The translations under genes and the position numbers were made by a program. From Escherichia coli (GTDB lineage Bacteria; Pseudomonadota; Gammaproteobacteria; Enterobacterales; Enterobacteriaceae): 64,000 nucleotides of DNA. Below are positions 1 to 62,995 of the stretch, piece after piece. Location: the NCBI RefSeq assembly GCF_003790525.1, contig NZ_CP033635.1. The stretch is one strand, 5' to 3'. The notes beneath the pieces were generated by a model, which worked only from the letters and a program-made list of their open reading frames with translations, was not told the origin of the DNA and made no database searches. The first letter of the stretch is position 1. Each line of letters starts with the position of its first letter.

Positions 1-83
1 AATACCGTGGTCGTCTGGATAACGTGTTTGTTACCGTGATTGGTCTGCTGACCATCCTGAACATCGTATACAAACTGTTTTAA
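1..83 (+). CDS. tdcC: 3' end of threonine/serine transporter gene (partial, start outside window)
   Basis: Open frame from position 3 reading ...DNVFVTVIGLLTILNIVYKLF then TAA at 81-83; lies directly upstream of tdcD as in the tdc operon. Confidence 0.55.
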   Translation, partial: YRGRLDNVFVTVIGLLTILNIVYKLF

Positions 84-108
84 TCCGTAACTCAGGATGA
101 GAAAAGAG

Positions 109-1317: not shown

Positions 1318-1350
1318 TTTAGTTGAAGTATTGTAGAGAGATTATTTTTC

Positions 1351-3645
1351 ATGAAGGTAGATATTGATACCAGCGATAAGCTGTACGCCGACGCATGGCT
1401 TGGCTTTAAAGGTACGGACTGGAAAAACGAAATTAATGTCCGCGATTTTATTCAACATAACTATACACCGTATGAAGGTGATGAATCTTTTCTCGCCGAA
1501 GCAACGCCAGCCACCACGGAATTGTGGGAAAAAGTGATGGAAGGCATCCGTATCGAAAACGCAACCCACGCGCCGGTTGATTTCGATACTAATATTGCTA
1601 CCACCATTACCGCTCATGATGCGGGATATATTAACCAGCCGCTGGAAAAAATAGTGGGCCTGCAAACGGATGCGCCATTAAAGCGTGCGCTGCATCCGTT
1701 CGGTGGCATTAATATGATTAAAAGTTCATTCCACGCCTATGGTCGTGAAATGGACAGTGAATTTGAATATCTGTTTACCGATCTGCGTAAAACCCATAAC
1801 CAGGGCGTATTTGATGTTTACTCACCGGATATGCTGCGCTGCCGTAAATCTGGCGTGCTGACCGGTTTACCAGATGGCTATGGTCGTGGGCGCATTATCG
1901 GTGACTATCGCCGCGTGGCGCTATATGGCATCAGTTATCTGGTGCGTGAACGCGAACTGCAATTTGCCGATCTCCAGTCCCGTCTGGAAAAAGGCGAGGA
2001 TCTGGAAGCCACCATCCGTCTGCGTGAGGAGCTGGCGGAACATCGTCGTGCGCTGTTGCAGATTCAGGAAATGGCGGCGAAATACGGTTTTGATATCTCC
2101 CGTCCGGCGCAGAATGCGCAGGAAGCGGTGCAGTGGCTCTACTTCGCTTACCTGGCGGCAGTGAAATCACAGAACGGCGGCGCAATGTCTCTTGGCCGTA
2201 CGGCATCGTTCCTCGATATCTACATTGAGCGCGACTTTAAAGCTGGCGTACTCAATGAACAGCAGGCACAGGAACTGATCGACCACTTCATTATGAAGAT
2301 CCGTATGGTGCGCTTCCTGCGTACGCCGGAATTTGATTCGCTGTTCTCCGGCGACCCAATCTGGGCGACGGAAGTGATCGGCGGGATGGGGCTGGACGGT
2401 CGTACGCTGGTGACCAAAAACTCTTTCCGTTATCTGCACACCCTGCACACTATGGGGCCAGCACCGGAACCAAACCTGACCATTCTGTGGTCGGAAGAAT
2501 TACCGATCGCCTTCAAAAAATATGCCGCACAGGTGTCTATCGTCACCTCTTCCTTGCAGTATGAAAACGACGATCTGATGCGTACTGACTTCAACAGCGA
2601 CGATTACGCGATTGCCTGCTGCGTTAGCCCGATGGTGATTGGTAAGCAAATGCAGTTCTTTGGTGCACGCGCTAACCTGGCGAAAACGCTGCTCTACGCA
2701 ATTAACGGCGGGGTGGATGAGAAGCTGAAGATTCAGGTCGGGCCGAAAACAGCACCATTGATGGACGATGTGCTGGACTACGACAAAGTGATGGACAGCC
2801 TCGATCATTTCATGGATTGGCTGGCAGTGCAGTACATCAGCGCGCTGAATATCATCCACTACATGCACGACAAGTACAGCTATGAAGCCTCGCTGATGGC
2901 GCTGCACGATCGTGATGTTTATCGCACGATGGCATGCGGCATCGCGGGCCTGTCGGTGGCGACGGACTCCCTGTCTGCCATCAAATATGCCCGCGTGAAA
3001 CCAATCCGTGACGAAAACGGCCTGGCGGTGGACTTTGAAATCGACGGCGAATATCCGCAGTACGGTAACAACGACGAGCGCGTAGACAGCATTGCCTGCG
3101 ACCTGGTTGAACGCTTTATGAAGAAAATTAAAGCGCTGCCAACCTATCGCAACGCCGTCCCTACCCAGTCGATTCTGACTATCACTTCTAACGTGGTGTA
3201 CGGCCAGAAAACCGGTAACACGCCGGACGGTCGTCGCGCCGGAACACCGTTCGCACCGGGCGCTAACCCGATGCACGGTCGTGACCGCAAAGGTGCGGTA
3301 GCCTCGCTGACGTCGGTGGCGAAACTGCCGTTCACCTACGCCAAAGACGGTATTTCGTACACCTTCTCAATTGTCCCGGCGGCGCTGGGCAAAGAAGATC
3401 CAGTACGTAAAACCAACCTTGTCGGCCTGCTGGATGGGTATTTCCACCACGAAGCGGATGTCGAAGGCGGTCAACACCTCAACGTCAACGTAATGAATCG
3501 GGAAATGCTGCTGGATGCCATCGAGCACCCGGAAAAATATCCTAACCTGACAATCCGTGTCTCTGGCTACGCCGTGCGCTTCAACGCACTGACCCGTGAA
3601 CAGCAGCAGGATGTTATTTCACGTACCTTTACCCAGGCGCTCTGA
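1351..3645 (+). CDS. tdcE: 2-ketobutyrate/pyruvate formate-lyase (glycyl radical enzyme)
   Basis: 764-aa [27 protein letters not shown]...; PFL-family sequence; position in tdc operon. Confidence 0.92.
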
Positions 3646-3658
3646 CGCCGGAGGATGT

Positions 3659-4048
3659 ATGAAAAAGATTATCGAAACGCAACGTGCCCCAGGCGCAATC
3701 GGCCCTTATGTTCAAGGCGTTGATTTAGGCAGCATGGTCTTCACCTCCGGGCAAATTCCGGTTTGCCCACAGACCGGTGAGATCCCGGCTGATGTGCAAG
3801 ATCAGGCGCGTTTAAGCCTCGAAAACGTCAAAGCGATCGTGGTTGCTGCCGGGCTGAGCGTGGGCGATATCATCAAGATGACCGTGTTCATCACCGATCT
3901 GAATGATTTTGCCACCATCAATGAAGTCTATAAGCAGTTCTTCGATGAGCATCAGGCGACCTACCCGACCCGGAGCTGTGTGCAGGTCGCGCGTTTGCCG
4001 AAAGATGTGAAGCTGGAAATTGAAGCCATCGCAGTACGTAGTGCGTAA
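3659..4048 (+). CDS. tdcF: RidA/YjgF-family enamine/imine deaminase
   Basis: 129-aa product MKKIIETQRAPGAIGPYVQG... from ATG at 3659, inside ORF 3596..4048. Confidence 0.9.
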   Translation: MKKIIETQRAPGAIGPYVQGVDLGSMVFTSGQIPVCPQTGEIPADVQDQARLSLENVKAIVVAAGLSVGDIIKMTVFITDLNDFATINEVYKQFFDEHQATYPTRSCVQVARLPKDVKLEIEAIAVRSA

Positions 4049-4119
4049 AGCCTCGTGAGCGGGACGGTCGCAAGGTCGTTCCGCTCCACTTCACTGAACG
4101 GCAATCCGAGGGTGTGGAT

Positions 4120-5484
4120 ATGATTAGTGCATTCGATATTTTCAAAATTGGGATTGGTCCCTCCAGTTCGCATACCGTGGGGCCAATGAATGCCGGAAAA
4201 AGTTTTATTGATCGGCTGGAAAGTAGCGGCTTATTAACCGCGACGAGCCATATTGTGGTCGATCTGTACGGGTCGTTGTCACTGACGGGCAAAGGCCATG
4301 CCACGGATGTCGCCATCATCATGGGACTGGCAGGAAACAGTCCGCAGGATGTTGTCATTGATGAGATCCCTGCATTTATAGAGTTAGTGACGCGCAGCGG
4401 GCGGCTGCCAGTGGCATCTGGTGCGCATATTGTTGATTTTCCTGTAGCAAAGAACATTATCTTCCATCCCGAAATGTTGCCTCGCCATGAGAACGGAATG
4501 CGGATCACTGCCTGGAAGGGACAGGAAGCGCTATTAAGCAAAACCTATTACTCTGTCGGCGGCGGGTTTATTGTCGAAGAAGAACACTTCGGCCTGTCGC
4601 ACGATGTCGAAACGTCCGTACCTTACGATTTCCACTCAGCAGGAGAACTGCTGAAAATGTGTGATTACAACGGCCTGTCTATTTCTGGCCTGATGATGCA
4701 CAACGAGCTGGCGCTGCGCAGTAAAGCGGAAATTGATGCCGGTTTTGCCCGTATCTGGCAAGTGATGCATGACGGTATTGAACGCGGGATGAACACTGAA
4801 GGCGTGCTGCCTGGTCCGCTCAATGTGCCGCGCCGTGCCGTAGCGCTGCGTCGTCAGTTGGTTTCCAGCGATAACATCTCTAACGATCCGATGAATGTCA
4901 TCGACTGGATCAACATGTACGCGCTGGCGGTTAGTGAAGAAAACGCAGCTGGCGGGCGCGTGGTAACGGCACCGACTAACGGTGCGTGCGGCATTATTCC
5001 GGCAGTGCTGGCTTATTACGATAAGTTCCGTCGTCCGGTAAATGAGCGGTCAATTGCCCGCTATTTTCTTGCAGCCGGGGCTATTGGCGCGCTGTATAAA
5101 ATGAACGCCTCCATCTCTGGCGCGGAAGTCGGCTGTCAGGGGGAGATTGGCGTGGCCTGTTCAATGGCGGCGGCAGGGTTAACTGAACTACTGGGCGGCA
5201 GTCCGGCGCAGGTATGCAATGCGGCGGAAATCGCGATGGAGCATAACCTTGGGCTGACCTGCGATCCGGTTGCCGGACAGGTACAAATCCCGTGCATTGA
5301 ACGTAATGCCATTAATGCCGTGAAAGCAGTAAACGCCGCGCGGATGGCGATGCGCCGCACCTCGGCACCGCGTGTTTCACTCGATAAAGTGATCGAGACG
5401 ATGTATGAAACCGGCAAAGATATGAACGATAAATACCGCGAAACATCACGCGGAGGACTGGCTATTAAAGTGGTCTGCGGCTGA
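4120..5484 (+). CDS. tdcG: L-serine dehydratase (iron-sulfur dependent)
   Basis: ORF 4114..5484; [23 protein letters not shown]... is the typical L-serine dehydratase N-terminus. Start may be 4114 or 4120. Confidence 0.88.
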
Positions 5485-7117: not shown

Positions 7118-8428
7118 ATGTTTGATTCGACTTTAAATCCGTTATGGCAGCGTTACATCCTCGCCGTTCAGGAGGAAGTAAAACCGGCGCTGGGATGTAC
7201 TGAACCGATTTCACTGGCGCTGGCGGCGGCGGTTGCTGCGGCAGAACTGGAAGGTCCGGTTGAACGTGTAGAAGCCTGGGTTTCGCCAAATCTGATGAAG
7301 AACGGTCTGGGCGTCACCGTTCCCGGCACGGGAATGGTGGGGCTGCCGATTGCGGCGGCGCTGGGAGCGTTAGGTGGAAATGCTAACGCCGGGCTGGAAG
7401 TGCTGAAAGATGCAACTGCGCAGGCAATTGCCGATGCCAAAGCACTGCTGGCGGCGGGGAAAGTCTCAGTTAAGATCCAGGAACCTTGCGATGAAATCCT
7501 CTTCTCACGCGCCAAAGTCTGGAACGGTGAGAAGTGGGCGTGTGTCACCATTGTCGGCGGGCATACCAACATTGTGCATATTGAGACGCACAATGGTGTG
7601 GTGTTTACCCAGCAGGCGTGTGTGACAGAGGGCGAGCAAGAGTCGCCGCTGACGGTGCTTTCCAGGACGACGCTGGCTGAGATCCTGAAGTTCGTCAATG
7701 AAGTCCCGTTTGCGGCGATCCGCTTTATTCTCGATTCCGCGAAGTTAAATTGCGCGTTATCGCAGGAAGGCTTGAGCGGTAACTGGGGGCTGCATATTGG
7801 CGCGACGCTGGAAAAACAGTGCGCGCGCGGCTTGCTGGCGAAAGATCTCTCTTCATCCATTGTGATTCGTACCAGCGCGGCATCCGATGCGCGTATGGGC
7901 GGCGCTACGCTTCCGGCAATGAGTAACTCCGGCTCGGGTAACCAGGGGATCACTGCAACAATGCCTGTGGTGGTGGTAGCAGAACACTTCGGGGCCGATG
8001 ATGAACGGCTGGCGCGTGCGCTGATGCTTTCGCATTTGAGCGCGATTTACATCCATAACCAGTTACCGCGTTTGTCTGCGCTTTGTGCCGCAACGACCGC
8101 AGCAATGGGGGCCGCCGCCGGGATGGCATGGCTGGTGGATGGGCGTTATGAAACCATTTCGATGGCGATCAGCAGTATGATCGGCGATGTCAGCGGCATG
8201 ATTTGCGATGGTGCGTCGAACAGCTGCGCGATGAAGGTTTCGACCAGTGCTTCGGCTGCGTGGAAAGCGGTGTTAATGGCGCTGGATGATACCGCAGTGA
8301 CCGGCAATGAAGGGATTGTGGCGCATGATGTTGAGCAGTCGATTGCCAACCTGTGTGCGTTAGCAAGCCATTCGATGCAGCAAACGGATCGGCAGATTAT
8401 CGAGATTATGGCGAGCAAGGCCAGATAA
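7118..8428 (+). CDS. cyuA: L-cysteine desulfidase
   Basis: 436-aa [41 protein letters not shown]...; synteny with K-12 yhaM (cyuA). Confidence 0.85.
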
Positions 8429-8447
8429 TCGCCAGGTTTTGGGGAGC

Positions 8448-8556
8448 GTGCCGGATGCGATGCTGGCGCATCTTGTCCGGCCTACGGGGTGCGCAATTTG
8501 TTGATGTTGTTGTGTTTTGTAGGCCGGATAAGGCGTTTACGCCACATCCGGCACTT
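8448..8556. repeat. REP (repetitive extragenic palindrome) cluster
   Basis: gccggatgcg...cttgtccggcctac and taggccggataaggcgtttacgccacatccggcac: typical E. coli REP consensus units in an intergenic gap. Confidence 0.6.
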
Positions 8557-8560
8557 GTCT

Positions 8561-8725
8561 TTACGCGGTAGCTTCATCCTCGGCTAAACGCGTTTCAGCA
8601 TCCGCGACGATGGCTTCCAGCTCGCTCAACATCTCTTCATAGCCAAAATTTTTGGCGGTGCGAGAAGGTTCTTTCGCCACCACGGGCTTCACTGGCTGAC
8701 GCTTTTTGGCCGATTTTTTACTCAT
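8561..8725 (-). CDS. yhaL: small protein YhaL (54 aa)
   Basis: Hand translation of the minus strand gives MSKKSAKKRQPVKPVVAKEPSRTAKNFGYEEMLSELEAIVADAETRLAEDEATA*. Below the 60-aa cutoff of the ORF track. Sits between cyuA and yhaK as in K-12. Confidence 0.7.
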   Translation of the reverse strand: MSKKSAKKRQPVKPVVAKEPSRTAKNFGYEEMLSELEAIVADAETRLAEDEATA

Positions 8726-8747
8726 CATCATCTCCCTGTAAAAACAA

Positions 8748-9449
8748 CTAGACAGGCAAATCTATCAGCAAAGCGCGCAGTGGGGAATCGGCAACCAGCG
8801 TAATGTTAGCCTCGTCACGAATAAACGCCCCATCACCGCAGGTCAGCGCCGCTTTCTCTTCATGATGCGTAAGCGCATGAAATTTCCCGTGAATCGATTG
8901 CAAATACGCGCGTGGCCCATGCAACTGGAAATTCGCACTTTCGCCTTTGTCGAGCACGATATGGTGCAGCCACACTTGCTGGCGCAATTGCAGGCTTCCC
9001 ATCCCACCTTCTGGCGAGGCGATTAATTGCTGCTTGCTCATATTAAGCGCCAGTTTTTGAATCAGCGGATTCTCTCGTTGTGGGCAGGCATCCAGCCAAA
9101 GTTGCATTCGCGTTAACGATTTGTCTTTGCTGAGATTGTGTTCGCTATAGCTGACACCCGGCTGGGTAGAGAGCAGCAACACCTCACCGGCGCTGGCCTG
9201 AACATGATTGCCTTCGCTGTCGCGATACTCAGCTTCTCCATCCAGAATCACATTTAAAATATCGACTTTGGGATAGGTTCGCGGCTGAAAGGCGGCACCT
9301 GGGGCCAGCACTTCCTGGTTAAGCACGCGCAGGGAGGCATAGCCTAACAATTTCGGGTCGAAGTAGTGTCCAAAGGAAAAAGTATACCGGGCCTGCAACC
9401 ATCCGTAGTCTGCTTGTCCACACTGCCTGGCAGTTCGGGTAGTAATCAT
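8748..9449 (-). CDS. yhaK: pirin-like (cupin) protein
   Basis: 233-aa ORF; synteny and sequence recall of K-12 YhaK. Confidence 0.85.
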   Translation of the reverse strand: MITTRTARQCGQADYGWLQARYTFSFGHYFDPKLLGYASLRVLNQEVLAPGAAFQPRTYPKVDILNVILDGEAEYRDSEGNHVQASAGEVLLLSTQPGVSYSEHNLSKDKSLTRMQLWLDACPQRENPLIQKLALNMSKQQLIASPEGGMGSLQLRQQVWLHHIVLDKGESANFQLHGPRAYLQSIHGKFHALTHHEEKAALTCGDGAFIRDEANITLVADSPLRALLIDLPV

Positions 9450-51387: not shown

Positions 51388-52152
51388 ATGAATAACTCCC
51401 CCCGCTACCCGCAGCGCGTTCGCAATGATCTGCGCTTCCGTGAACTGACTGTGTTACGCGTTGAGCGCATCAGCGCCGGTTTTCAGCGCATTGTCCTCGG
51501 CGGCGAGGCGCTGGACGGTTTTACGTCGCGCGGCTTTGACGATCACAGCAAACTCTTCTTTCCTCAACCTGACGCTCACTTTGTGCCGCCAACGGTAACG
51601 GAAGAGGGCATCGTCTGGCCGGAAGGACCACGCCCACCGTCGCGTGACTATACGCCGCTGTATGACGAACTACGCCATGAACTGGCGATCGATTTCTTTA
51701 TTCACGACGGTGGGGTCGCCAGCGGCTGGGCGATGCAGGCGAAACCGGGCGATAAACTTACGGTGGCAGGTCCGCGCGGTTCGCTGGTGGTGCCGGAAGA
51801 TTACGCGTATCAGCTGTATGTCTGCGATGAATCCGGAATGCCCGCACTGCGCCGCCGCCTGGAAACGTTGAGCAAACTTGCCGTTAAACCGCAAGTTAGT
51901 GCGCTGGTTAGCGTGCGGGATAACGCCTGTCAGGATTATCTCGCGCACCTTGATGGTTTTAATATCGAATGGCTGGCACATGATGAGCAGGCGGTAGATG
52001 CGCGTCTGGCGCAGATGCAAATCCCTGCCGATGATTACTTCATCTGGATAACCGGCGAAGGCAAAGTCGTTAAGAATTTAAGCCGCCGCTTTGAAGCGGA
52101 ACAGTATGACCCACAGCGGGTACGTGCAGCGGCTTACTGGCACGCAAAGTAA
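51388..52152 (+). CDS. yqjH: NADPH-dependent ferric-siderophore reductase
   Basis: 254-aa ORF MNNSPRYPQRVRNDLRFRELTVLRVERISAGFQRIVLGGEALDGF... Confidence 0.88.
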   Translation: MNNSPRYPQRVRNDLRFRELTVLRVERISAGFQRIVLGGEALDGFTSRGFDDHSKLFFPQPDAHFVPPTVTEEGIVWPEGPRPPSRDYTPLYDELRHELAIDFFIHDGGVASGWAMQAKPGDKLTVAGPRGSLVVPEDYAYQLYVCDESGMPALRRRLETLSKLAVKPQVSALVSVRDNACQDYLAHLDGFNIEWLAHDEQAVDARLAQMQIPADDYFIWITGEGKVVKNLSRRFEAEQYDPQRVRAAAYWHAK

Positions 52153-52168
52153 CTGATATATATAAAGA

Positions 52169-52196
52169 AAAAGGCTGACGATTTCTCGTCAGCCTT
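52169..52196. terminator. bidirectional rho-independent terminator (yqjH / ileX)
   Basis: Hairpin aaaggctgacg-atttct-cgtcagccttt flanked by A-run on one side and T-run on the other. Confidence 0.5.
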
Positions 52197-52205
52197 TGCT
52201 ATGTC

Positions 52206-52253
52206 TGGTGGCCCCTGCTGGACTTGAACCAGCGACCAAGCGATTATGAGTCA
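52206..52253 (-). other. ileX: 3' partial copy (about 47 nt) of tRNA-Ile2 (ileX, CAU anticodon): island att junction
   Basis: Minus-strand read gives ...GACTCATAATCGCTTGGTCGCTGGTTCAAGTCCAGCAGGGGCCACCA, i.e. anticodon loop, T-arm, acceptor 3' strand and CCA. The 5' half (acceptor/D-arm) is absent; the upstream sequence diverges. Confidence 0.75.
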
Positions 52254-52378
52254 TGAGGCAAGTTCGTTCTATATTGTTTTTGTTTGTTCGTGATTGCTTT
52301 ATTAGTTGTTTGTAATCAATAAATTATGTGATTTTCCCTGTCTCCGCTTGGTTCCGTTTTTTCTTCATTGTACGATCG

Positions 52379-52402
52379 TTACCTGACCCATTACCTGACC
52401 CA
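52379..52402 (+). repeat. tandem 12-bp direct repeat (ttacctgaccca x2) upstream of int
   Basis: Two exact adjacent copies about 47 bp upstream of the integrase ATG, within the island-side arm of the att junction. Confidence 0.6.
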
Positions 52403-52448
52403 AAATCACGAGTTATTCTGATTGTTACTGGTTTAGAAAAGAGGTTCT

Positions 52449-53765
52449 ATGGCCGTCAATCTTACTGAAACAGCCATCCGAGCATTGAAAGCAAAAAAGA
52501 CATCGTTCTATGTCTGGAGCAACAGCTCTCAACGTGGCACTGGACGACTTGGTGTCAAAGTTCAGCCTTCTGGCAGCAAGATTTTCTATTTCCGCTATTA
52601 CGTGGAAAAAGGGAAAAAAGAAAGATTCATTCAATTGGGTATATGGCCTGAGATGAAACTGGCCACAGCGAATGAACTGACAAAAAAGTATGGTGCCTGG
52701 CTCATTGAAGGAAAGGATCCCCAGGCAGAACTGGAACGACAACAGTTTGCAGAACAGCAGCGGATACAACTCCATCAATCACAGGGCTCATTTGAAGCAT
52801 TGATTCATGGTTATGTTAACAAAATGAAAATTGATAATAAGAGGACATGGCAGGATGTTCTGAAACGCCTTGAAAATGAATGCTATACAGTGATCCCCCG
52901 TGAAACTAAAGCTAAAGATGTGACTTCCGGACAGATTAAACATATCCTGGCCGGGATCATTCAGCGCGGTGCTGTGGTTCACTCTAACCGGATCCGTTCT
53001 TACCTGATGGCTGCATTTAACTATGGACTGAAAGCAGATAACGATCCGATGAACACAAGTGTAGGGATTACTTTTGGGCTGGAGGCAAATCCGGTGTCAG
53101 TGATACCGAAACAGTCATCTGCTGAAAAAGTCGGTGATACCTGGCTGACACTTGAAGAGTTGCGTTTTCTAATGGAACATTTTGCTGAAGCAACCAACGT
53201 TGGATTATTGATGCAACATTTGATCCGATTCTGTATCTATACCGGAGGGCAACGTCCTTTCGAAATGATCGCCAGTCAGTGGTGTGATGTTGATTTTCAA
53301 CAAAAAACGCTGCTGGTGACTGCTGATGTCTCTAAAAATAAACGAGAGCATTTGATACCGTTGACTGAATCAGCATTACAGGAATTATCCTGTGTGCAGG
53401 AGTTAACAAAAGAAAAATCCAGCCCTTACATTTTTCCACTTTCGACTAATGGTAAGCGTCCGGTTCGTACGGACAGTCTGGCTCGCGCTATCATGTATTT
53501 CCGGGCTTTTAATCCTGACTTTAAAATTTTTACAGCACGTGACTTACGTCGGACCTGTAAAACGTTAATGGGAGAAGCTGGGATCAGTAAGGAAATCCGC
53601 GATCGTATTCAAAATCATGCGTTGAACGATGTCAGTTCAAAACATTATGATCGATACGATTATTTGCCAGAAAAACGCAGAGCACTTGAGATCTGGGAGG
53701 ACCGGGTTAATAACTATCAACAGCAAACAGGCAATAATGTTGTCAATCTGTTTGGCAGAAGGTGA
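52449..53765 (+). CDS. P4-type tyrosine recombinase / phage integrase
   Basis: 438-aa ORF MAVNLTETAIRALKAKKTSFYVWSNSSQRGTGRLGVKVQPSGSKIFYFRYYV... (typical N-terminal arm-binding region of P4-like integrases); the C-terminal region contains R, H and Y residues compatible with a tyrosine-recombinase catalytic core; adjacent to the tRNA fragment. Confidence 0.9.
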   Translation: MAVNLTETAIRALKAKKTSFYVWSNSSQRGTGRLGVKVQPSGSKIFYFRYYVEKGKKERFIQLGIWPEMKLATANELTKKYGAWLIEGKDPQAELERQQFAEQQRIQLHQSQGSFEALIHGYVNKMKIDNKRTWQDVLKRLENECYTVIPRETKAKDVTSGQIKHILAGIIQRGAVVHSNRIRSYLMAAFNYGLKADNDPMNTSVGITFGLEANPVSVIPKQSSAEKVGDTWLTLEELRFLMEHFAEATNVGLLMQHLIRFCIYTGGQRPFEMIASQWCDVDFQQKTLLVTADVSKNKREHLIPLTESALQELSCVQELTKEKSSPYIFPLSTNGKRPVRTDSLARAIMYFRAFNPDFKIFTARDLRRTCKTLMGEAGISKEIRDRIQNHALNDVSSKHYDRYDYLPEKRRALEIWEDRVNNYQQQTGNNVVNLFGRR

Positions 53766-53894
53766 GGGAGTTCCTGGTTGCTGTACGAATTGTGTACAAT
53801 TGATGGGTATTGTTGATGCACTTGGTTCTTGTATTGTTTACTATAATTATTGAGGTAAATTTTCGTGCCGGTATTACTCAGAGGGGATTCAAAA

Positions 53895-54491
53895 ATGGCT
53901 GTAATTCCAATGTCTTACTCCCCTGCTACTGTAGCTCGTCGTTTTTCGATACTGGATGGAGTAACTATTCAGGGCGTGCTTTACCAGATCATCTGGGATC
54001 CAAAGACTCCGTTTGCTGCGGTAATCGAAGCTGCACCTTCTGTTATTGATGGTGATGTTCGCCATAAGGTTGTTGCCACTCTGGAGCTTCAGCGTCGTCC
54101 CCGGCTTGAAGGCGTGTTTGTCCAGAAATTCTGGGAAGAACAGGATGTTGCTCAGATTGAAGGGATTGTTGTCGATGGCGCTGTACGTGATGTTGGTCTT
54201 GCAACGTTTGTTTATGAAACGATAGTCACAAAAGCGGGCGTTGTACTATTAAGTGATAACGAGCAATATGAAGGAGGTAAAGCTCTCTGGCAGCATATTG
54301 CGCGTCGTTCAACGAATCTGAAGGTGTTTATTTTAGATACTGATTCCGCACGGTATTACCCGTTTGATGGCGAACGGATCAGTTATGACGGGAAAAGCAT
54401 CCCGGAATCAGAAATCTGGAGTGAACATCCTGAGCGAAACAGACACGCTGTCGTTCTTGTGGCTGAATCTGTTAATGGTAAAGCCGCATAA
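53895..54491 (+). CDS. hypothetical protein (198 aa), integrase-proximal cargo
   Basis: ORF 53865..54491; ATG at 53895 has a good SD (agagggga). No family recognised; an R-x-x-G-x-A stretch (VRDVGLA) is only faintly reminiscent of GNAT motif A. Confidence 0.55.
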   Translation: MAVIPMSYSPATVARRFSILDGVTIQGVLYQIIWDPKTPFAAVIEAAPSVIDGDVRHKVVATLELQRRPRLEGVFVQKFWEEQDVAQIEGIVVDGAVRDVGLATFVYETIVTKAGVVLLSDNEQYEGGKALWQHIARRSTNLKVFILDTDSARYYPFDGERISYDGKSIPESEIWSEHPERNRHAVVLVAESVNGKAA

Positions 54492-54573
54492 TTTGCTGAG
54501 TGTCTCATTTTTTGAGATCTTGCTGGAAAGTCTCCTTTGGGGATAGCGAACTGCTATCCCCTTTCTCAGTGAG

Positions 54574-56178
54574 TTACTGTTCGACCAGACATTTTCCCCA
54601 TAAAGGTCGTATCGAGTATCTATCTTCGCTATATGGATTTATTTTATTTTTTTCCCTCTGTGCTATCAGCAACGTGTCGATCTCATCCTTAATAATGTGT
54701 TGAACTGCTTGACGGTAACGGTTAAGCGAAGTGTCACTGATATCTTGTGGAAGTTGTAGACTGCCATCTGCCTTGACAAGTTCATTTACACCATCTTTAA
54801 TTCTGCGTCCCTGACCATCAGGTATACCTTCATTCAGATCATAGCCTTTTAGTCCTGCAAGACGAATATTCACGTCAATCTTTTCTGTACGTATCTTTTT
54901 GTTACTTACCAACAGAATTTTATTGGCGTTATACCATTTTTCAAATATTTCCAGTTGTTTCATGATGTTTGTGAAGTTATTCAGTTCGCTCCTGAATTCA
55001 ATAGATTTTCTAATTTTACGCTCTTTTGCATCAATGTTTATTCCTGGATAATTTATTTCCATTTTTAACGGTTCTGTGTATGCCTGTTGCAGGCAATCAG
55101 CAAGATTCATTGCTGCATCCTGCAGGGTATTGGTATAAATCAGTTTCAGAAGTTCATCACGCTGTATAGTGATTTGACAATAGTCTTTTTCCCATGCGGT
55201 GGTGTTTTCAATCGTGTCACTTTCATCGGAAATAATTGTTGTGAACTTCCAGGTGTAACGAATAAAATCATTTCCTTTAAAATATTGCACTAATTTATTT
55301 AACCATTCATATATTTCCAGAGCATAAAGTTTAACGTATCCATCATATATTATCTTTGTTGCATTTTTGTTGGCTAGCGAAAACATTTTGTCCACGAATT
55401 CTGTACGCCCGATTGTTAGCAATTGTTTTCTAAGTTTACTCACATCGTTAGTATCTGGTTTCTCACAATTCCAGGGACTTTTGTATTCATTTTCAAAAGG
55501 AGAAAGCCATTCAGGAATCTCTGTTTCTGAGTGATAGCAGTTGTTAATAGCCAAACCAAGGGTTCTGGCAAGTATCGCTGATTCATCAATTTGATGGTAT
55601 CGGTTCAGTTGTTCCAGTAATTCTTTAGTACATGAGTGCGCAACAGAAAGATCCTGATGGCAATATCCTTGTCGAACCAGAGCGGGAAGTGGTGAGCAAT
55701 GAGCTTTACAATCTGTCAGAATATTGAACAAATCGTTTCTGACGAATTCTTCCATCTCAGGTGTTTTCCAGCCACCACTATTTTGGCCGACAAATTTTGC
55801 TGTTGGTTCCCTGTTCATATCTCCCCAGGTTTTCAGGCTGACGAGTCTGTTATCAAAACCATTGTATAAATGGCACATAACCTGAAAAGCAGCATACAGA
55901 TCTTTAGATAGTGGATTATCGGTCTCACTTATGGAGTAGTTCTCTCTGTTTTTCTCTAAAATACTTTGGAGTTTTGTGTTAGCGCGTAATGCCGAGAGAA
56001 TCCGATGTTGTTCATCAAACCAAGGACGATATTCTGGATCCAGATACAATCTGCGTGCTTTGAAAATGAGTAGAAGCAACTGTTCGGAAACAGCTTCATG
56101 TATGTGGGGAAACGGCATGGAGGTGCCGGATAAAACACGATAGTACGGGTGGTTTGTTTTTACCTTTTTAGTTACCAT
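54574..56178 (-). CDS. hypothetical protein (about 514-534 aa), AT-rich, convergent with the 198-aa gene
   Basis: Long uninterrupted ORF with Lys/Asn/Glu/Tyr-rich, low-GC composition. No Walker A, HEPN, PD-(D/E)xK or TM signature recognised by eye. Alternative start at Met21 (56118). Confidence 0.6.
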   Translation of the reverse strand: MVTKKVKTNHPYYRVLSGTSMPFPHIHEAVSEQLLLLIFKARRLYLDPEYRPWFDEQHRILSALRANTKLQSILEKNRENYSISETDNPLSKDLYAAFQVMCHLYNGFDNRLVSLKTWGDMNREPTAKFVGQNSGGWKTPEMEEFVRNDLFNILTDCKAHCSPLPALVRQGYCHQDLSVAHSCTKELLEQLNRYHQIDESAILARTLGLAINNCYHSETEIPEWLSPFENEYKSPWNCEKPDTNDVSKLRKQLLTIGRTEFVDKMFSLANKNATKIIYDGYVKLYALEIYEWLNKLVQYFKGNDFIRYTWKFTTIISDESDTIENTTAWEKDYCQITIQRDELLKLIYTNTLQDAAMNLADCLQQAYTEPLKMEINYPGINIDAKERKIRKSIEFRSELNNFTNIMKQLEIFEKWYNANKILLVSNKKIRTEKIDVNIRLAGLKGYDLNEGIPDGQGRRIKDGVNELVKADGSLQLPQDISDTSLNRYRQAVQHIIKDEIDTLLIAQREKNKINPYSEDRYSIRPLWGKCLVEQ

Positions 56179-56957
56179 AATGTTAAATTCTTCCGTCTAT
56201 TGCATAGCTGTTTCCAGTAGAGAAACTTGATACAGTCCTTTGTCAGGACATTGATACAGAGTTAACAGCCTCTACGAAATGGGAATCAGTTATGCAGTGG
56301 CATTATACGATGCTGAATCTAATACGATATCCTTAGCGTTTATTCCTGATTTTTTTACGAGCATTCCCTTTTGTTGCATATTGCTCAGGACGCAAATGAT
56401 TTTACGGTTATAGCCCTCTACAGTCACGTCACTTTCATCTGAAAATATGTATCGTTTTCATTCAATTATTATCTTTTGTCTGCACTTTAGCTTTAGAAAG
56501 TTGGCAAAAATCAACTCCCTCTTACAAGTTCTATTATCGCCAGAAGATAATTTTGTGAACTTCGTCACGTTTTCAAACTAATGTTGTGGGGGCTTTTCTG
56601 GGGAGAATTTTTGGTCACTACCCCTCCTCTTGATATCATAGATTATAACAAGATTTTTTTTGTTTTTGTCTGCATAAAATAACCTACGAATATTGTGATT
56701 TTGATTTTTATTTTGTATACCAAAAAGCATTGTTTAAGTTATTTTTATATTGTGACTTTCTTTGTTGTTATTGTGTTATTAGAAGTCAGTTAATTAAATC
56801 ATTTCTCACAATTTGATTTCTTGGTTGTGCAAATGTATTGTTTTGCTCGTGAGTTGCTGGTGCTGTTCAACAGCATACCACTACAGATAGATGTAGTGAT
56901 TTGAGCAGCTCACATGCATATACAATCTGAAAATCATGAATATATAAGGAGAGCAAT

Positions 56958-57185
56958 ATGTGGAAGCCGTTAAGAGATGAGAACCGTTTATCAATTTTGA
57001 AGATCTATGGATACACCTGTGACAGACTGGTACGAGAAAAGGAACGCCAGAAAATTACGTCTATTTCTCGTTCACAAGCCTGGAAACTGGAACGTGAAGG
57101 AAAATTCCCGCCACGTAAAACTATTGGAAAGAAATCCTGTGGGTGGTTATTAAGTGATCTATTGTGGTGGATTAGTCAGTATTAA
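56958..57185 (+). CDS. AlpA-family phage/island transcriptional regulator
   Basis: 75-aa ORF MWKPLRDENRLSILKIYGYTCDRLVREKERQKITSISRSQAWKLEREGKFPPRKTIGKKSCGWLLSDLLWWI: typical AlpA/Prophage_CP4-57 regulator pattern; strong SD (aaggag). Confidence 0.75.
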   Translation: MWKPLRDENRLSILKIYGYTCDRLVREKERQKITSISRSQAWKLEREGKFPPRKTIGKKSCGWLLSDLLWWISQY

Positions 57186-57247: not shown

Positions 57248-57994
57248 ATGATGAAACGTGTCTCTTTCTCTCTTGCAGAAACATATGAAGCTGATGTAAT
57301 TAAAAAGTATCAGCATTTAAAAAAATGCTCATTTTCAGCAGCGATTAAAGAGTGTTTAAAGCTAGGGGCTCCTGTTTTAAACAGGATAAATGAAAATATT
57401 GCTGCTATAACTGATATAGAGGATAAGCTACGTCAGTTTTTTAATGAGGAACCATTTGTGCAACGGACAAAGCCTGAAATAACAAAAGGAGAGTTTTTTC
57501 ATAGCATTTATAAATCGCATATCAAATATGAATATGATGTTCTCGATAGAAAGATATTTCCTCATGAAAGCACCAGAAATGCTATGGGAGTTGCAGAGAA
57601 AAAGGGAATTAAAGAGAATGCGACCTTAATGCTGGAATATTATAAAGTTGAGAAGGCAATTTGTATTTACACGAACAGAAAAGTTTCCCATACCCTGAAT
57701 CGTGCAGGAGGGTTTTATAAAACCATTCTGATTAAAACCAGTGTTTTTGGGGATTATTTTTTTGACTTTTGCAATTCAGTTTGCCTGCCGATAGATGAGT
57801 TGATTGAGTATGGTACGAAAGAAACAGTGAGGCGACATCAGATTCGTAGTACAGGATTTTGTACTTTTCATATTCCGATTTTTTATATCAATAATAAGGC
57901 TGTAATAGTGCCTGTTCTGAGAACAGAGGAAGTTTCACAAAGTTCCAGAACAGGTGGAGATGTTATTATTATTAACCCATTTGAAGATGAATGA
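57248..57994 (+). CDS. hypothetical protein (248 aa) with possible N-terminal RHH-like segment
   Basis: N-terminus MMKRVSFSLAETYEADVIKKYQHL resembles the beta-strand-helix start of ribbon-helix-helix proteins; remainder unassigned; SD aaggag. Confidence 0.55.
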   Translation: MMKRVSFSLAETYEADVIKKYQHLKKCSFSAAIKECLKLGAPVLNRINENIAAITDIEDKLRQFFNEEPFVQRTKPEITKGEFFHSIYKSHIKYEYDVLDRKIFPHESTRNAMGVAEKKGIKENATLMLEYYKVEKAICIYTNRKVSHTLNRAGGFYKTILIKTSVFGDYFFDFCNSVCLPIDELIEYGTKETVRRHQIRSTGFCTFHIPIFYINNKAVIVPVLRTEEVSQSSRTGGDVIIINPFEDE

Positions 57995-58215: not shown

Positions 58216-58776
58216 ATGGCGAGTTTTGCATACATAGACTCTGAAAAATGGTCAAAACTTAATCGCTTAAAATCCATGATTCAGAGATATTTTAAAGAAC
58301 CACTATTGCAGTTAACAGGCGAATTGGGTCGCCCGGATTATACTCTGGCAGACAGAAAACGGTTAGTTCGACTCCTGACGCAGGATATGCAAAGGGGTGA
58401 TATTCTGATTACTAAATCGTTAACTTGTTTTGGTAATACGCCGGAAAAAATACAGGAGGTTTTATCTTTAAGTATCAGACAAGGTATTAATATTTGCTTT
58501 TTTACGTCATCAGAGTTGCCGGATGGTGATGATATTCCTGTGGTACTCACCGGGATGATTTTACCTACAGATATTAGAGGAAAAATTCCCGACATCAGTA
58601 TCCGGAAAATTAAAAGAAAACCAGGAAGGAAAGAAGGGAGTATTCATAGTAAAAATATCAGACAGTTGAAATTGCAGGGGTTCAGTCAGTCACAAACAGC
58701 CAGAAAATTAAGCATCAGTTTATCCACTGTAAAAAGACACTGGGATAAAGGTATTGTTGATCTAACTGCAGAGTAA
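58216..58776 (+). CDS. serine-recombinase (resolvase/invertase)-like protein with degenerate catalytic motifs and C-terminal HTH
   Basis: 186 aa; MASFAYIDSEK.. parallels resolvase MxxIGYxRVST.. and GDILITKSLTCFGN parallels GDxLVVxKLDRLGRS, but the conserved Arg/Asp residues are replaced; C-terminal GFSQSQTARKLSISLSTVKRHW is resolvase-type HTH. Confidence 0.55.
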   Translation: MASFAYIDSEKWSKLNRLKSMIQRYFKEPLLQLTGELGRPDYTLADRKRLVRLLTQDMQRGDILITKSLTCFGNTPEKIQEVLSLSIRQGINICFFTSSELPDGDDIPVVLTGMILPTDIRGKIPDISIRKIKRKPGRKEGSIHSKNIRQLKLQGFSQSQTARKLSISLSTVKRHWDKGIVDLTAE

Positions 58777-59157: not shown

Positions 59158-59772
59158 ATGATTACGATTGAAACTCTTTACGGTGAATGTCATGAGGCTC
59201 ACGGGTTAAAAATAAGAAACCAGGTGAATAACCTCTTCCAGAAACATCCCAGAATAACGGCAATACGGGTGGATCTCCATTATCCTCCCGTGATTGACAA
59301 CGGGGATACCATTACCTGTTTTCCTAACCTGAGTCCCGGAGAGATATCTCGTTTCCGTAACTCGCTGAATGCGAAAATTAATGCAGATCAACACCGTAAA
59401 AAACAACAAGGCAAACGCACCTACGCAACGTCGGTTTGTATTATCTGGGCGAAAGAATATACGCAGTCCTTTAAATGTCATTATCACGTCTGCCTTTTTT
59501 TTAACAAAGACGCCTATTACCACCTGGGAGACTATGAGCGCTCTGACACCCTGAGAGGGTTAATTACCGGAGCCTGGTACAGTGCCTTAGGGTTAGAACT
59601 GGAAGATCACCAGGGACTAGTTCATTTCCCTGCTAATGGACGTTACATCCTGGATATTAACGATCCTGATTTCCCTGAGCAATATCAGCGCTTATTGGCA
59701 CGTCTGGATTATCTGACGAAGCTCGACACTAAAGCATCAGGCCAGCGTAACTTTGGCTACAGCGGTTTTTGA
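59158..59772 (+). CDS. HUH-endonuclease (rolling-circle Rep / inovirus Gp2-like, YagK/YfjJ-type) protein
   Basis: 204 aa; contains KCHYHVCLFF (H-u-H motif) and a downstream DYLTK (YxxK-type candidate catalytic Tyr); genomic context matches CP4-type prophage modules. Confidence 0.55.
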   Translation: MITIETLYGECHEAHGLKIRNQVNNLFQKHPRITAIRVDLHYPPVIDNGDTITCFPNLSPGEISRFRNSLNAKINADQHRKKQQGKRTYATSVCIIWAKEYTQSFKCHYHVCLFFNKDAYYHLGDYERSDTLRGLITGAWYSALGLELEDHQGLVHFPANGRYILDINDPDFPEQYQRLLARLDYLTKLDTKASGQRNFGYSGF

Positions 59773-59799: not shown

Positions 59800-60366
59800 A
59801 TGTATACAGAATCAAACGTTAAGCTTTCCTGTAACGCCCTCTGGCAAAAGTATGTCCTTGCAACTCTGTATCGGGCTGCAGCTACACATCCTAAAATTAA
59901 ATTATTACAATTTAAATTAATACCTTGCCCAGGTATGAACAAGGCAATTCCCTCTCTGATGGCTGATTTTACTGGTGAACTGCATAGACTAATTTCTGAA
60001 TATTTGCAGTGCAAGCGACGTAAAGATAAATCTGTTGAGCCCGCCCCTTTATATTATCTCTGGAGTAGGGAAGCTGTGGCTAACGATACCACTCCTTATC
60101 TTATGGTACTGCTACTTAATAACGATGTCTGGTGTAAGAGTCGTGAGGTGGTGGCTCTCAGAAATCTGATTGAGCAGGCGTGGGGAAAAGTATTGGACGA
60201 AGATAACTCCATTACACATCAGGTTGTGTATCCTGAAGTGCTGTCGTTGGTATTTGATGCAGCTAACACATACAACGCTGAGCCTGGTGTACTGGAACAG
60301 ACGGCCCAGGCTTACATTGAATCGCATGGTGCCATTGAACGTCATCTTGGGTGTAGTGACTTTTAA
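59800..60366 (+). CDS. paralog of the preceding HUH/Gp2-like gene with degenerate HUH motif
   Basis: 188 aa; aligns by eye to the upstream gene (HPRITAIRVDLHYP vs HPKIKLLQFKLIP; HYHVCLFFNKDAY vs PYLMVLLLNNDVW; LRGLITGAWYSALG vs LRNLIEQAWGKVLD), but the two His of the HUH motif are lost. Confidence 0.5.
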   Translation: MYTESNVKLSCNALWQKYVLATLYRAAATHPKIKLLQFKLIPCPGMNKAIPSLMADFTGELHRLISEYLQCKRRKDKSVEPAPLYYLWSREAVANDTTPYLMVLLLNNDVWCKSREVVALRNLIEQAWGKVLDEDNSITHQVVYPEVLSLVFDAANTYNAEPGVLEQTAQAYIESHGAIERHLGCSDF

Positions 60367-60561: not shown

Positions 60562-61650
60562 TGGATTTGCCCCTATATTTCCAGACACCTGTTATCACTT
60601 AACCCATTACTGGCCCGCTGCCGTAGATATTCCCGTGGCGAGCGATAACCCAGTGCACTATGCGGATGCCATTCGTTATAATGCTCGAACGCCTCTGCAA
60701 GGTTCTTTGCTGCCGTTAACCCGTCTGGTTTGGGCATGATACTGATGTAATCACGCTTTATCGTTTTCACGAAGCTCTCTGCTATGCCGTTACTCTCCGG
60801 ACTCCGCACCGCCGTGTTCTTCGGTTCAAGTCCCAGCATCCGGGCGAACTGGCGTGTTTCATTAGCCCGGTAGCATGAACCATTATCCGTCAGCCACTCC
60901 ACTGGAGATGTCGGAAGCTCGCTGCCGAAGCGGCGTTCCACCGCTCCCAGCATGACGTCCTGTACTGTTTCACTGTCGAAGCCGCCCGTAGTGACCGCCC
61001 AGTGCAGTGCCTCACGGTCACAGCAGTCCAGCGCGAACGTGACCCCCAGTTTTTCTCCGTTATCACAGCGGAACTCGAACCCGTCAGAGCACCATCGTTG
61101 ATTGCTTTCTTTCACGGCCACTTTGCCAGTATGTGCCCGTTTCGATGGCGGTACAGCGGTTTTTCGCTCAAGCAACAGCGCATTCTGGCGCATGATCCGG
61201 TAAACACGTTTGGCATTGATAGCAGGCATACCATCAAGTTCGGCCTGTCTGCGAAGCAGCGCCCATACCCGACGATAACCATACGTGGGCAGCTCTCCGA
61301 TAACATGGTGTATACGGAGAAGCACATCCGTATCATCTGAGTGACGGCTGCGGCGACCATCTTTCCAGTCATCGGTTCGTCTGAGAATGACGTGCAACTG
61401 CGCACGCGACACCCGGAGACAACGGCTGACTAAGCTTACTCCCCATCCCCGGGCAACAAGGGAGACCGTCATTCCCGGTTCAAAGCTCTGCTGAACAATA
61501 GCGATCTTTTCCTGTGTAGTACGCCGTCTGCGTTTCTCCGGCCCTAAGACATCAATCATCTGTTCTCCAATGACTAGTCTAGAAACTAGTATTAAGACTA
61601 TCACTTATTTAAGTGATATTGATTGTCTGGAGATTCAGGGGGCCAGTCTA
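60562..61650 (-). mobile_element. IS2 (IS3 family) with internal deletion of about 240 bp
   Basis: IS2 terminal sequences recognised at both ends (minus-strand 5' TAGACTGGCCCCCTGAATCTCCAGACAA... and ...GGGGCAAATCCA 3'). Length about 1089 bp versus 1331 bp for intact IS2. Confidence 0.85.
60573..61559 (-). CDS. insCD: IS2 transposase derivative: in-frame fusion of InsC N-terminus (about 37 aa) to InsD
   Basis: Product [37 protein letters not shown]|[24 protein letters not shown]... with DDE integrase core. The junction lies between similar VAR/IAR codons; the native -1 frameshift region is missing. Confidence 0.8.
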
Positions 61651-61984: not shown

Positions 61985-62995
61985 ATGTCACTCAAGGCTA
62001 TCGCCGCCGAACTCGGGATCTCTGTCACCACAGTCAGCCGGGCGCTTGGCGGATTTTCGGACGTTTCCGCTTCGACCCGTGCACGTGTAGAAGCGGAAGC
62101 TCGGCGTCGTGGTTATCGCCCGAATACCCTGGCAAGACGTCTCAAAACCGGTAAAACCGATGCGGTCGGCCTGGTCTTCCCTGAACATGCTGTACTGTTC
62201 AGCAGTAGTGTGTTTGTGGATATGGTCAGTTGTATCAGCCGGGAACTGGTCCGCCATGATATTGACTTACTGCTGATAGCCGATGATGAACGGGCTGACA
62301 GCCACAGCTATATGCGTCTGGTCGAAAGCCGCCGGGTTGATGCCCTTATCGTGGCGCACACGATGGATAATGACCCGCGTCTTACACACCTGCAGGAGGC
62401 CGGTATTCCGTTTCTGGCACTCGGTCAGGTGCCGTCCGGTCTTCCCTGTGCCTGGTTTGACTTTGATAACCATGCAGGAACCTGGCAGGCCACACAGCAC
62501 CTGATTGCCCTGGGCCATCAGCGAATTGCCCTGCTGAGTGAGGACAACTCCCGTGCCTATGTCACTGCACGACGTCAGGGATGGCGCGATGCCCTGAGTG
62601 AACATGGTCTGCCTGAGACCTGGCTACGCCGGGTCTCTCCCACCCGACGCTCAGGTTTCCAGGCAGTGACTGAGTTAATGTCACTTCCGCTTCCCCCGAC
62701 GGCCATTATTACCGACAGTGACCTGATCGGTGATGGCGCGGCCATGTCGCTGCAGTTATCCGGTCATCTGTCCGGAGAGGATGCCGTCTCTCTTGTGGTT
62801 TATGATGGTCTGCCGCAGGACAGTATTATTGAACAGGATGTGGCTGCAGTTCTTCAGTCAACACGACATCGCGTCGGTCGTCAGATTGCCGACATGATAC
62901 GCCAGCTGGTCACGAATGTTTCACCTGAAATGCTACAAGTACTCTGGCAGCCGGAATTTCATCCTGGCAAGACAACGCTTGCTCCCTCCGCCTGA
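61985..62995 (+). CDS. LacI-family transcriptional repressor (RafR-like)
   Basis: 336-aa ORF MSLKAIAAELGISVTTVSRALGGFSDVSASTRARVEAEARRRGYRPNTLARRL... with N-terminal LacI HTH and periplasmic-binding-protein-like body; directly upstream of an alpha-galactosidase gene. Confidence 0.7.
   Translation: MSLKAIAAELGISVTTVSRALGGFSDVSASTRARVEAEARRRGYRPNTLARRLKTGKTDAVGLVFPEHAVLFSSSVFVDMVSCISRELVRHDIDLLLIADDERADSHSYMRLVESRRVDALIVAHTMDNDPRLTHLQEAGIPFLALGQVPSGLPCAWFDFDNHAGTWQATQHLIALGHQRIALLSEDNSRAYVTARRQGWRDALSEHGLPETWLRRVSPTRRSGFQAVTELMSLPLPPTAIITDSDLIGDGAAMSLQLSGHLSGEDAVSLVVYDGLPQDSIIEQDVAAVLQSTRHRVGRQIADMIRQLVTNVSPEMLQVLWQPEFHPGKTTLAPSA

Follow-up and report, generated by a model that had tools for sequence, protein, structure and literature searches.

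The cryptic prophage CP4-57 of Escherichia coli K-12, with the order ssrA-intA-yfjH-alpA-yfjI-yfjJ-abpBA-...-rnlAB, is one of the closest described counterparts of the locus reported here. This locus lies in a stretch of 64,000 nucleotides (nt) of E. coli DNA (contig NZ_CP033635.1; hereafter the window), in which two convergent open reading frames (ORFs) stand between a P4-type integrase gene (int) and an alpA regulator gene. ORF-A (53895..54491, + strand) codes for a protein of 198 amino acids (aa), WP_000268404.1, and ORF-B (54574..56178, - strand) codes for one of 534 aa, WP_000256688.1. Positions, strands and lengths of both had been read correctly in a preliminary description of the window, which regarded the two genes as candidate defence or toxin-like cargo. 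Our results show that ORF-A and ORF-B are two independent units and not a functional pair.

Comparison with described elements

The likeness to CP4-57 covers order and strands: a P4-type int, a reversed gene, alpA, a YfjI/DUF3987 gene, a Gp2/YfjJ-like gene and defence cargo follow one another in both islands. In addition, the island of E. coli W2-5, which is 100% identical to the window in this region and in which both ORFs are annotated as 'hypothetical protein' (RefSeq), has at its far end the usual CP4-type module (GTPase, Ag43, DUF932, antirestriction, RadC, and YeeU/CbtA). However, the two elements differ in several respects. CP4-57 is integrated at ssrA, whereas the island with ORF-A and ORF-B is found at ileX and also beside proA. 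The reversed gene is yfjH in the former and ORF-B in the latter; homology of ORF-B to YfjH, which holds the equivalent slot, was considered and rejected (hhalign probability 0.2). An extra GNAT-like gene follows int in the ORF-A/ORF-B island, and its reversed gene is separated from alpA by about 700-780 bp, compared with 43 bp in CP4-57. Moreover, the window island has genes for proteins of 248 and 186 aa in place of YfjI.

ORF-B can also be compared with the HEPN ribonucleases, such as RnlA and the Abi-type (abortive infection) enzymes. Like them, it is all-alpha in its model, has an invariant R-x4-H at a loop-helix junction, and is located on mobile elements with defence-type neighbours. However, ORF-B is large, has several domains, and matched no HEPN family or structure in profile or fold comparisons. 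HEPN motifs have a conserved polar residue after the Arg, whereas the residue at this position in ORF-B and its relatives is Q, K, L, or M. Another parallel is given by the single-gene 'morons' in variable slots of P2-like prophages (old, tin, fun/Z, orf30, and the systems described by Rousset et al., 2022, PMC9122126), since a homologue of ORF-B is likewise found in the variable S-V tail-gene slot of a Klebsiella P2-like prophage. It is well documented that anti-phage genes accumulate in P2 hotspots. Unlike the morons, ORF-B of the window belongs to the backbone of a chromosomal island and not to a P2 hotspot.

Separate histories of ORF-A and ORF-B

The two genes were separated by a sliding nucleotide comparison of the window with three variant islands. 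Identity was about 95-99% in int and ORF-A, 55-75% in ORF-B, and 65-79% in alpA, while the gap between ORF-B and alpA was unalignable (~35%). The drop is located at the junction of ORF-A and ORF-B, at about 54500, and corresponds to a sharp recombination breakpoint between the two genes. The synonymous divergence (dS) was 0.08-0.12 for int and 0.02-0.22 between islands for ORF-A, and reached 1.12-1.15 for ORF-B and 1.0-1.8 for alpA when the window was compared with the other alleles. These matching values indicate that ORF-B shares its history with alpA and not with ORF-A. The ratio of nonsynonymous to synonymous divergence (dN/dS) was 0.04-0.09 for int, 0.03-0.21 for ORF-A (0.03 against the homologue in the phage-plasmid SJ46), 0.11-0.19 for alpA, and 0.23-0.53 for ORF-B. 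Both ORFs are thus under purifying selection and are real genes, and the ORF-B protein evolves several-fold faster than its neighbours (0.23-0.53 vs 0.03-0.21).

The distribution of the two genes leads to the same separation. ORF-A is present without ORF-B in SJ46, in RCS47, and at 129 P1-like plasmid places, and ORF-B is present without ORF-A at every locus outside E. coli (Klebsiella, Citrobacter, Raoultella, Serratia, and metagenomic). Furthermore, the 82-bp gap between the two stop codons contains a G+C-rich hairpin (GGGGAUAGC...GCUAUCCCC, 54539..54561) that is a candidate terminator. The stop-to-stop region (window 54480-54585) folds at -38.2 kcal/mol with a z of -4.6, and 0 of 200 shuffled sequences were as stable. 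The T-run of the hairpin is weak, and a simple terminator scan missed it. This region fits two separate convergent transcripts.

ORF-A as a predicted GNAT-like protein

The preliminary description could place neither protein in a known family. For ORF-A this no longer holds: the protein matches phrog_7522 (E 6e-124), where its function is given as unknown, and it is predicted to adopt the GNAT fold. Searches of NCBIfam and PADLOC with ORF-A returned nothing, a PDB profile search returned nothing relevant, and the only Pfam match, Acetyltransf_1, was not significant (E 0.16). In the structural model, a mixed beta-sheet with the order beta4-alpha3-beta5-alpha4 is present, as in the GNAT core fold. 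The residues R98-D-V-G101-L-A103 fit GNAT motif A (Q/R-x-x-G-x-G/A) at the start of alpha3 and are followed by a helix (102-113); R98, G101, L102, and A103 are invariant in 21 homologues. Motif A forms the loop that binds the pyrophosphate of acyl-CoA. By structure and motif, ORF-A is predicted to be a divergent, acyl-CoA N-acyltransferase-like member of this known superfamily. It differs from the superfamily in having no significant Pfam or PDB sequence match and in its N-terminal ~65 aa, which are PmgF/Upf52.1-like: residues 4-66, a beta-rich segment, are ~45% identical to P1 PmgF and P7 Upf52.1.

In GNAT toxin-antitoxin modules of the AtaT/TacT/KacT type, the toxin has an adjacent, co-transcribed gene for a small antitoxin (RHH or similar). 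No antitoxin-like small ORF is present upstream of ORF-A in the 130-bp gap to int, and the next gene on the other side is the convergent 534-aa ORF-B. Because there is no partner antitoxin, ORF-A is not a GNAT toxin-antitoxin module. Homologues with 87% identity occur in the P1-like phage-plasmids SJ46, RCS47, and vB_EcoM-673R5, and in SJ46 the homologue lies directly after bplB and before repL/kilA. ORF-A is inherited together with int and is also carried by P1-like phage-plasmids. Where ORF-A truly begins is uncertain. Translation from an alternative GTG at 53865 yields a protein of 208 aa, and the 10-codon extension (MPVLLRGDSK) is kept as MPVLL(K/R/T)GDS in homologues down to 67% identity; it also overlaps the purine-rich Shine-Dalgarno sequence of the ATG at 53895.

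ORF-B as founder of an orphan family

In the case of ORF-B, the failure to find a family was confirmed. ORF-B and 10-20 of its relatives had no family match in Pfam, NCBIfam, PADLOC, or PHROG, and a PDB sequence-profile search with full-length and N-terminal-domain profiles gave only chance matches (e.g., Etk, E 0.017). The fold search returned nothing outside ORF-B's own family. At 90% identity, this family forms 20 clusters in a set of 5.8 billion proteins, and a set of 1.84 billion proteins yielded 42 representatives, with ~14 full-length lineages; repeating the word-indexed search with a wider ORF-B alignment added no further members. Wherever the source of a member is named, it belongs to the Enterobacterales (E. 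coli, Serratia, Dickeya, and Klebsiella). Foldseek detected two more remote, uncharacterised structural relatives in Pseudoalteromonas and Erwinia. ORF-B thus founds a small orphan family, and its predicted fold, which is almost all-alpha, is unmatched. Two family members in UniProt/AFDB, A0ABC7ZZ27 and A0A085GKA2, are named 'tRNA-dihydrouridine synthase'; neither sequence nor fold supports this name, which looks like an annotation error, perhaps a propagated one.

Only 19 columns are invariant among 20 family members that range down to 18% identity, namely M1, L16, E32, Q33, L37, R42, D109, R169, Y172, H174, L177, W310, I338, L363, D447, S481, R487, P525, and W527. The invariant polar residues cluster in the well-modelled N-terminal 230 residues. 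It had been stated earlier that ORF-B has no HEPN-like Rx4-6H motif, but R169-Q-G-Y-C-H174 is an R-x4-H motif, in which R169, Y172, and H174 are invariant in 20/20 members; the region is modelled at a confidence (pLDDT) of 88-92. The same statement was accurate for the Walker A motif and for transmembrane segments, both of which are missing from ORF-B. The HEPN four-helix fold was not recognised in ORF-B by structure or profile comparison, and kinship to HEPN_LA2681 and RnlA was rejected after hhalign comparisons were negative. As far as the sequences indicate, the HEPN likeness of ORF-B is one of motif and not of membership.

A fixed backbone in a variable island

According to the preliminary description, the slot between int and the regulatory module of such elements is an established hotspot for anti-phage and other accessory cargo, and a comparison of islands with the same integrase was suggested. 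This comparison gave the opposite picture, in which the slot content is constant and the turnover lies further right. The loci that were inspected are cited by L numbers (L025 is NZ_CP010208.1 and L027 is CP101363.1). The order int-A-B-alpA is the same in all inspected islands (L001, L002-L004, L014, L015, L020, L021, and L025), with the qualification that L021 has no annotated int of this family beside its ORF-A, which is split by an IS3 insertion sequence (IS), and that int is not listed for L025. The shared arrangement consists of int, a 198-aa gene, a reversed 534-545-aa gene, a long gap, alpA, a DUF3987/YfjI gene, a Gp2-like gene, and cargo. The cargo beyond the Gp2-like genes is variable and includes TOTE fragments, a group II intron, helicases, a type I restriction-modification (RM) system, and dimethyl sulfoxide (DMSO) reductase. 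In E. coli 2014C-4423 (L020 831-3765), a TOTE conflict-system primase gene that follows the Gp2-like gene is broken by two IS600 copies.

The genome counts agree with a constant slot. ORF-B, in any allele, was found in 689 of 5426 complete E. coli genomes (~13%), with a nt identity of >=95% in 259 of them and of about 69-71% in 430, and at least 80% of the gene is kept in 677 of the 689. ORF-A was found at 731 chromosomal and 129 plasmid places in complete E. coli genomes. A query with the att fragment and int (52150-53800) had >=80% coverage in 453 of the 5426 genomes. Since the gene order is the same in the inspected islands and the counts match, the int-alpA slot in this island family is a constant part and not a hotspot. 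Together, int, ORF-A, ORF-B, and alpA make up the fixed backbone of a CP4-57-like integrative element located at ileX.

The integrase gene next to ORF-A (52449..53765, + strand, 438 aa) is of the P4 type, as described before, with matches to NCBIfam PRK09692 (E 3e-21) and phrog_1 (E 7e-46). The near-identical integrases of L002-L004 have Arm-DNA-bind_3 and Phage_integrase domains. The ileX gene expected next to int is not intact in the window: ARAGORN and Rfam detected no intact tRNA there, and direct reading of the sequence gave only a 47-nt 3' fragment of tRNA-Ile2 (ileX, CAU anticodon) at 52207..52253 (- strand), which is the att repeat on the int side of the island. Genomes without the island have a tRNA-Ile gene at the position of the fragment, and their match stops at window 52252. 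In W2-5, an intact tRNA-Ile gene is located at the far end of the island beside mug (L026 10141-10216), ~34.7 kb away, which is the length of the island, so int lies at the opposite end of the island from the functional tRNA gene.

This island family is not confined to a single integration site, because the copy in NZ_CP010208.1 'plasmid B' (L025) adjoins proA-proB-phoE, in the thrW/CP4-6 neighbourhood. This record, probably a chromosomal fragment, carries ORF-A, an ORF-B allele, alpA, YfjI, Gp2, and a DEAD/DEAH helicase gene. The 11.7-kb Salmonella enterica pIndS102_4 (L027, CP101363.1) was considered as an excised island circle and rejected, as it is a linear contig with aer, nfeR, and nfeF. 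It also holds the left end of the island, and its ORF-B is 100% identical to that of the window at the protein level. This 'plasmid' is most probably a chromosomal contig that was mis-assigned, or else contamination from E. coli.

Genomic contexts of ORF-B relatives

Outside the E. coli islands, ORF-B homologues occur in several kinds of mobile DNA. In a Klebsiella pneumoniae P2-like prophage, the space between tail genes S and V is filled by a homologue with 41% identity. The S-V junction is empty in phage L-413C and contains a different 347-aa gene in ST147-VIM1phi7.1, which makes it a true variable slot. A recent preprint describes defence hotspots within the P2 late genes, plus one downstream of GpL, and ties the latter to an accessory-gene hotspot in the tail genes (preprint, 2026). 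On IncF plasmids, the neighbours of ORF-B homologues include type II RM, DUF4145, and AbiEii genes; UmuDC genes are also found among the plasmid or viral-contig neighbours, and on one IMG/VR contig the homologue is near a type II RM pair. In a metagenomic contig (L008), a homologue with 22% identity (tblastn) is located between a pPIWI-RE restriction endonuclease (REase) module and a HEPN_LA2681 gene, a neighbourhood that looks like a defence island. The REase module there (1-5108) includes a 1232-aa gene, and the HEPN_LA2681 protein (7838-9433) has 531 aa. Other remote homologues are found beside IS110 in Serratia, beside mnmE, and near ParE/RelB.

The Klebsiella and Citrobacter lineage of ORF-B is always accompanied by a divergent gene coding for an acidic protein of 145-149 aa with an isoelectric point of 4.05 and a poly-D/E/Y tail. 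This gene lies ~300 bp upstream of the ORF-B homologue on the opposite strand (L005 5225-5662; L023 6173-6622; L036-L039) and is present in the prophage, in Klebsiella and Citrobacter IncF plasmids, and in four IMG/VR contigs. The acidic protein and ORF-B have co-diverged, with 63.5% and 62.4% identity, respectively, between prophage and plasmid copies. The acidic partner had no PADLOC match (L005 copy) and no PHROG match (L037 copy); it may act as a DNA mimic or as an inhibitory partner.

The small divergent neighbours vary among the remote ORF-B homologues. Small divergent gene pairs precede the homologues at L016 (6062-6667), L017 (1974-2588), and L010-L012 (about 1750-2410). They include glycine/alanine-rich 'glycine-zipper' membrane proteins, either of 104-107 aa or of 82 aa with CxxC...CPCC, and a protein of 88 aa with a helix-turn-helix (HTH)-like appearance. 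Only ORF-B and a longish upstream region are constant across the contexts, which speaks for an autonomous single-gene unit. ORF-B is a self-contained module found in islands, the P2-like S-V slot, IncF plasmids, and small chromosomal islets.

The region between ORF-B and alpA

ORF-B is AT-rich compared with the flanking core genes (38.3% vs 53.4% GC), and the non-coding region that it shares with the divergent alpA gene is even more so (56179..56957, 779 bp, 33.9% GC). Both properties had been pointed out in the earlier reading of the sequence and were borne out. This region is presumed to be the site of both promoters. No ORF in it has homologues, tandem repeats are absent, and none of its direct or inverted repeats is convincing. 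No Rfam family was detected in it apart from one chance snoRNA match (E 0.023), promoter-like sites were no more frequent than expected from shuffled sequences, and no remnants of the small partner genes of other ORF-B lineages were found. Between the window and the other island alleles, the inner ~650 bp are unalignable and only the gene starts at the edges align; length (692-779 bp) and AT-richness are kept across the alleles. We infer that the region is promoter and regulatory DNA, possibly subject to silencing.

Two candidates in this region were rejected. A type III toxin-antitoxin-like or other RNA element is not supported by repeats, by an Rfam match, or by conservation between alleles. 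A 99-aa ORF upstream of ORF-B in L002 recurs, within the set of alleles compared, only in the closely related gap of L020 (95% identity), is missing from the gaps of the window, L014, and L025, and is probably spurious.

Possible roles of ORF-B

With somewhat less than even confidence, we favour the reading that ORF-B is an autonomous conflict or defence effector of the phage-exclusion or abortive-infection type. It is in line with this that ORF-B homologues occupy the P2-like variable slot, lie near RM, Abi, and HEPN genes, and have a raised dN/dS. The undescribed single- or two-gene system of the preliminary description therefore survives in part: ORF-B is an uncharacterised gene of mobile elements whose contexts and fast evolution fit a conflict role, but the two-gene pairing is lost. 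In such an effector, the conserved N-terminal domain (residues 1-230, with E32/Q33, R42, D109, and R169-x4-H174) would be the catalytic part, for which, given the invariant R-x4-H, the most concrete guess is a HEPN-like nuclease. The more variable middle and C-terminal parts may contribute to sensing or regulation, and the long AT-rich upstream region might hold ORF-B expression low until a trigger occurs.

Several points weigh against an effector role. ORF-B homologues are absent from 50,697 deposited phage records, and a search of PADLOC-DB v2.0.0 at E<=1 returned 0 families for ORF-A, ORF-B, and 10 diverse ORF-B relatives. In E. coli, ORF-B is fixed in the island backbone and is not swapped in a hotspot; it faces alpA and has co-diverged with alpA and the intergenic region, a pattern that a regulator of the island could show as well. 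On mobile elements, most genes are accessory in any case, so that gene neighbourhood is weak evidence there. The suggested conflict role draws on context and evolution, with no homology to a functional family.

A more specific proposal is that ORF-B represents a new single-protein immune or anti-mobile-element family. It would combine an all-alpha fold unlike solved structures with an R-x4-H catalytic dyad, act as an autonomous cassette that moves between CP4-like islands, P2-like prophages, and IncF plasmids, and be controlled by an acidic partner in one lineage. We consider this possible but doubtful.

Among the other explanations, the one that survives best, although it is rather unlikely, is that ORF-B is an island regulator or sensor, functionally analogous to SaPI Stl or to phage master repressors of the cI type, acting on the intergenic region and through alpA on excision and replication. 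In all island alleles, ORF-B is divergent from alpA across the shared 692-779 bp, and ORF-B, the intergenic region, and alpA have co-diverged as an immunity region would, while int and ORF-A stayed 95-99% identical. ORF-B is also fixed in every island of the family, CP4-57 has another reversed gene (yfjH) at the same position, and remote homologues often face a small gene that is HTH-like by eye (L008, L016, and L017). However, no HTH or other DNA-binding domain was detected in 20 members at E<=0.01, the best match being HTH_6 in one member (E 0.056), and 534 aa is much above the typical size of a repressor. Homologues also occur without alpA or an island in the P2 S-V slot, IncF plasmids, Serratia IS110, and chromosomal islets, and YfjH at the equivalent position is unrelated.

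It is quite unlikely that ORF-B is a counter-defence or establishment factor that aids its carrier, for example by an anti-restriction or anti-Abi activity. This idea is suggested by the extremely acidic divergent partner that always accompanies the Klebsiella/Citrobacter lineage, as strong acidity is a trait of DNA-mimic anti-restriction proteins. In addition, the carriers are prophages and conjugative plasmids that must enter new hosts, and fast evolution suits either side of an arms race. But the acidic partner is missing from the E. coli islands, with no remnant in their intergenic region, its searches gave no DNA-mimic identification, and the absence of ORF-B from the deposited phage records tells against a counter-defence factor as well.

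The reading in which ORF-A and ORF-B work together as a single system (toxin/immunity, abortive infection, or anti-defence) and are swappable cargo of an integrase-proximal hotspot is very unlikely and is largely refuted by the distribution. Their near-constant co-occurrence on E. coli chromosomes (689 genomes for ORF-B vs 731 places for ORF-A) would agree with it, but the genes converge on an intervening hairpin region, and they are divided by a breakpoint and by a six- to twenty-fold difference in dS. Each is found alone elsewhere, ORF-A on P1-like phage-plasmids and ORF-B in Klebsiella, Citrobacter, Raoultella, Serratia, and metagenomic loci, where the Klebsiella lineage has the acidic protein as another constant partner. 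The constant slot content and the lack of a small antitoxin-like ORF upstream of ORF-A point in the same direction.

Finally, that both genes are functionless, decaying remnants hitch-hiking in a defective prophage-like island is most improbable: the island is indeed IS-ridden with backbone parts replaced or truncated, L015 has a frameshifted ORF-B, and an IS3 interrupts the ORF-A of L021, but dN/dS stays far below 1 for both genes even where dS is saturated (0.03 for ORF-A against SJ46, 0.23-0.28 for ORF-B), ORF-B is retained over at least 80% of its length in 677 of its 689 genomes, and full-length homologues extend across genera down to 18% identity with the 19 invariant columns.

Significance

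A literature search by the protein accessions, pmgF, and the island and CP4-57 gene names returned nothing on ORF-A or ORF-B. The orphan status of ORF-B is shared by many hypothetical proteins of mobile elements. ORF-B stands above this background through its presence in ~13% of E. coli genomes, its lone hops among three classes of mobile elements, its fast evolution, and an invariant dyad that looks catalytic. If ORF-B is a defence or exclusion effector, it would be a structurally new single-gene system that is already common and is missed by current annotation tools, being present in Klebsiella prophages and IncF plasmids beside the 689 of 5426 E. coli genomes. In that case, the 'backbone' genes beside int in CP4-57-type islands, and not only the known cargo hotspots, would merit testing. 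If ORF-B is instead an island regulator, it would offer a first handle on the control of AlpA and excision in a very common class of E. coli islands. Either way, the false lead of a two-gene hotspot cargo is removed, and R169 and H174 of ORF-B and R98/G101 of ORF-A are concrete targets for mutation.

Flanking genes of the window

On the left, the island is preceded by the E. coli core genes aer, nfeR (yqjI), and nfeF (yqjH), which extend up to 52152. On the right of the intergenic region, alpA (56958..57185, + strand) codes for an AlpA-family regulator of 75 aa (phrog_2790, E 3e-22), given as an AlpA or HTH regulator in RefSeq. It is followed by the genes for the 248-aa protein (57248-57994) and the 186-aa protein (58216-58776), which replace the usual YfjI/DUF3987 gene after alpA. 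The 248-aa protein has no family match, and the 186-aa protein has a C-terminal HTH that resembles those of DNA invertases or sigma-70 region 4. Two tandem Gp2/YagK-YfjJ-like genes come next (59158-59772 and 59800-60366), and to their right are an IS3-family transposase ORF (60573-61604) and a LacI-family regulator gene of higher GC (61985-62995). Beyond ~61.7 kb, the content of the window departs from that of W2-5, which has IS elements and the DMSO reductase operon there.

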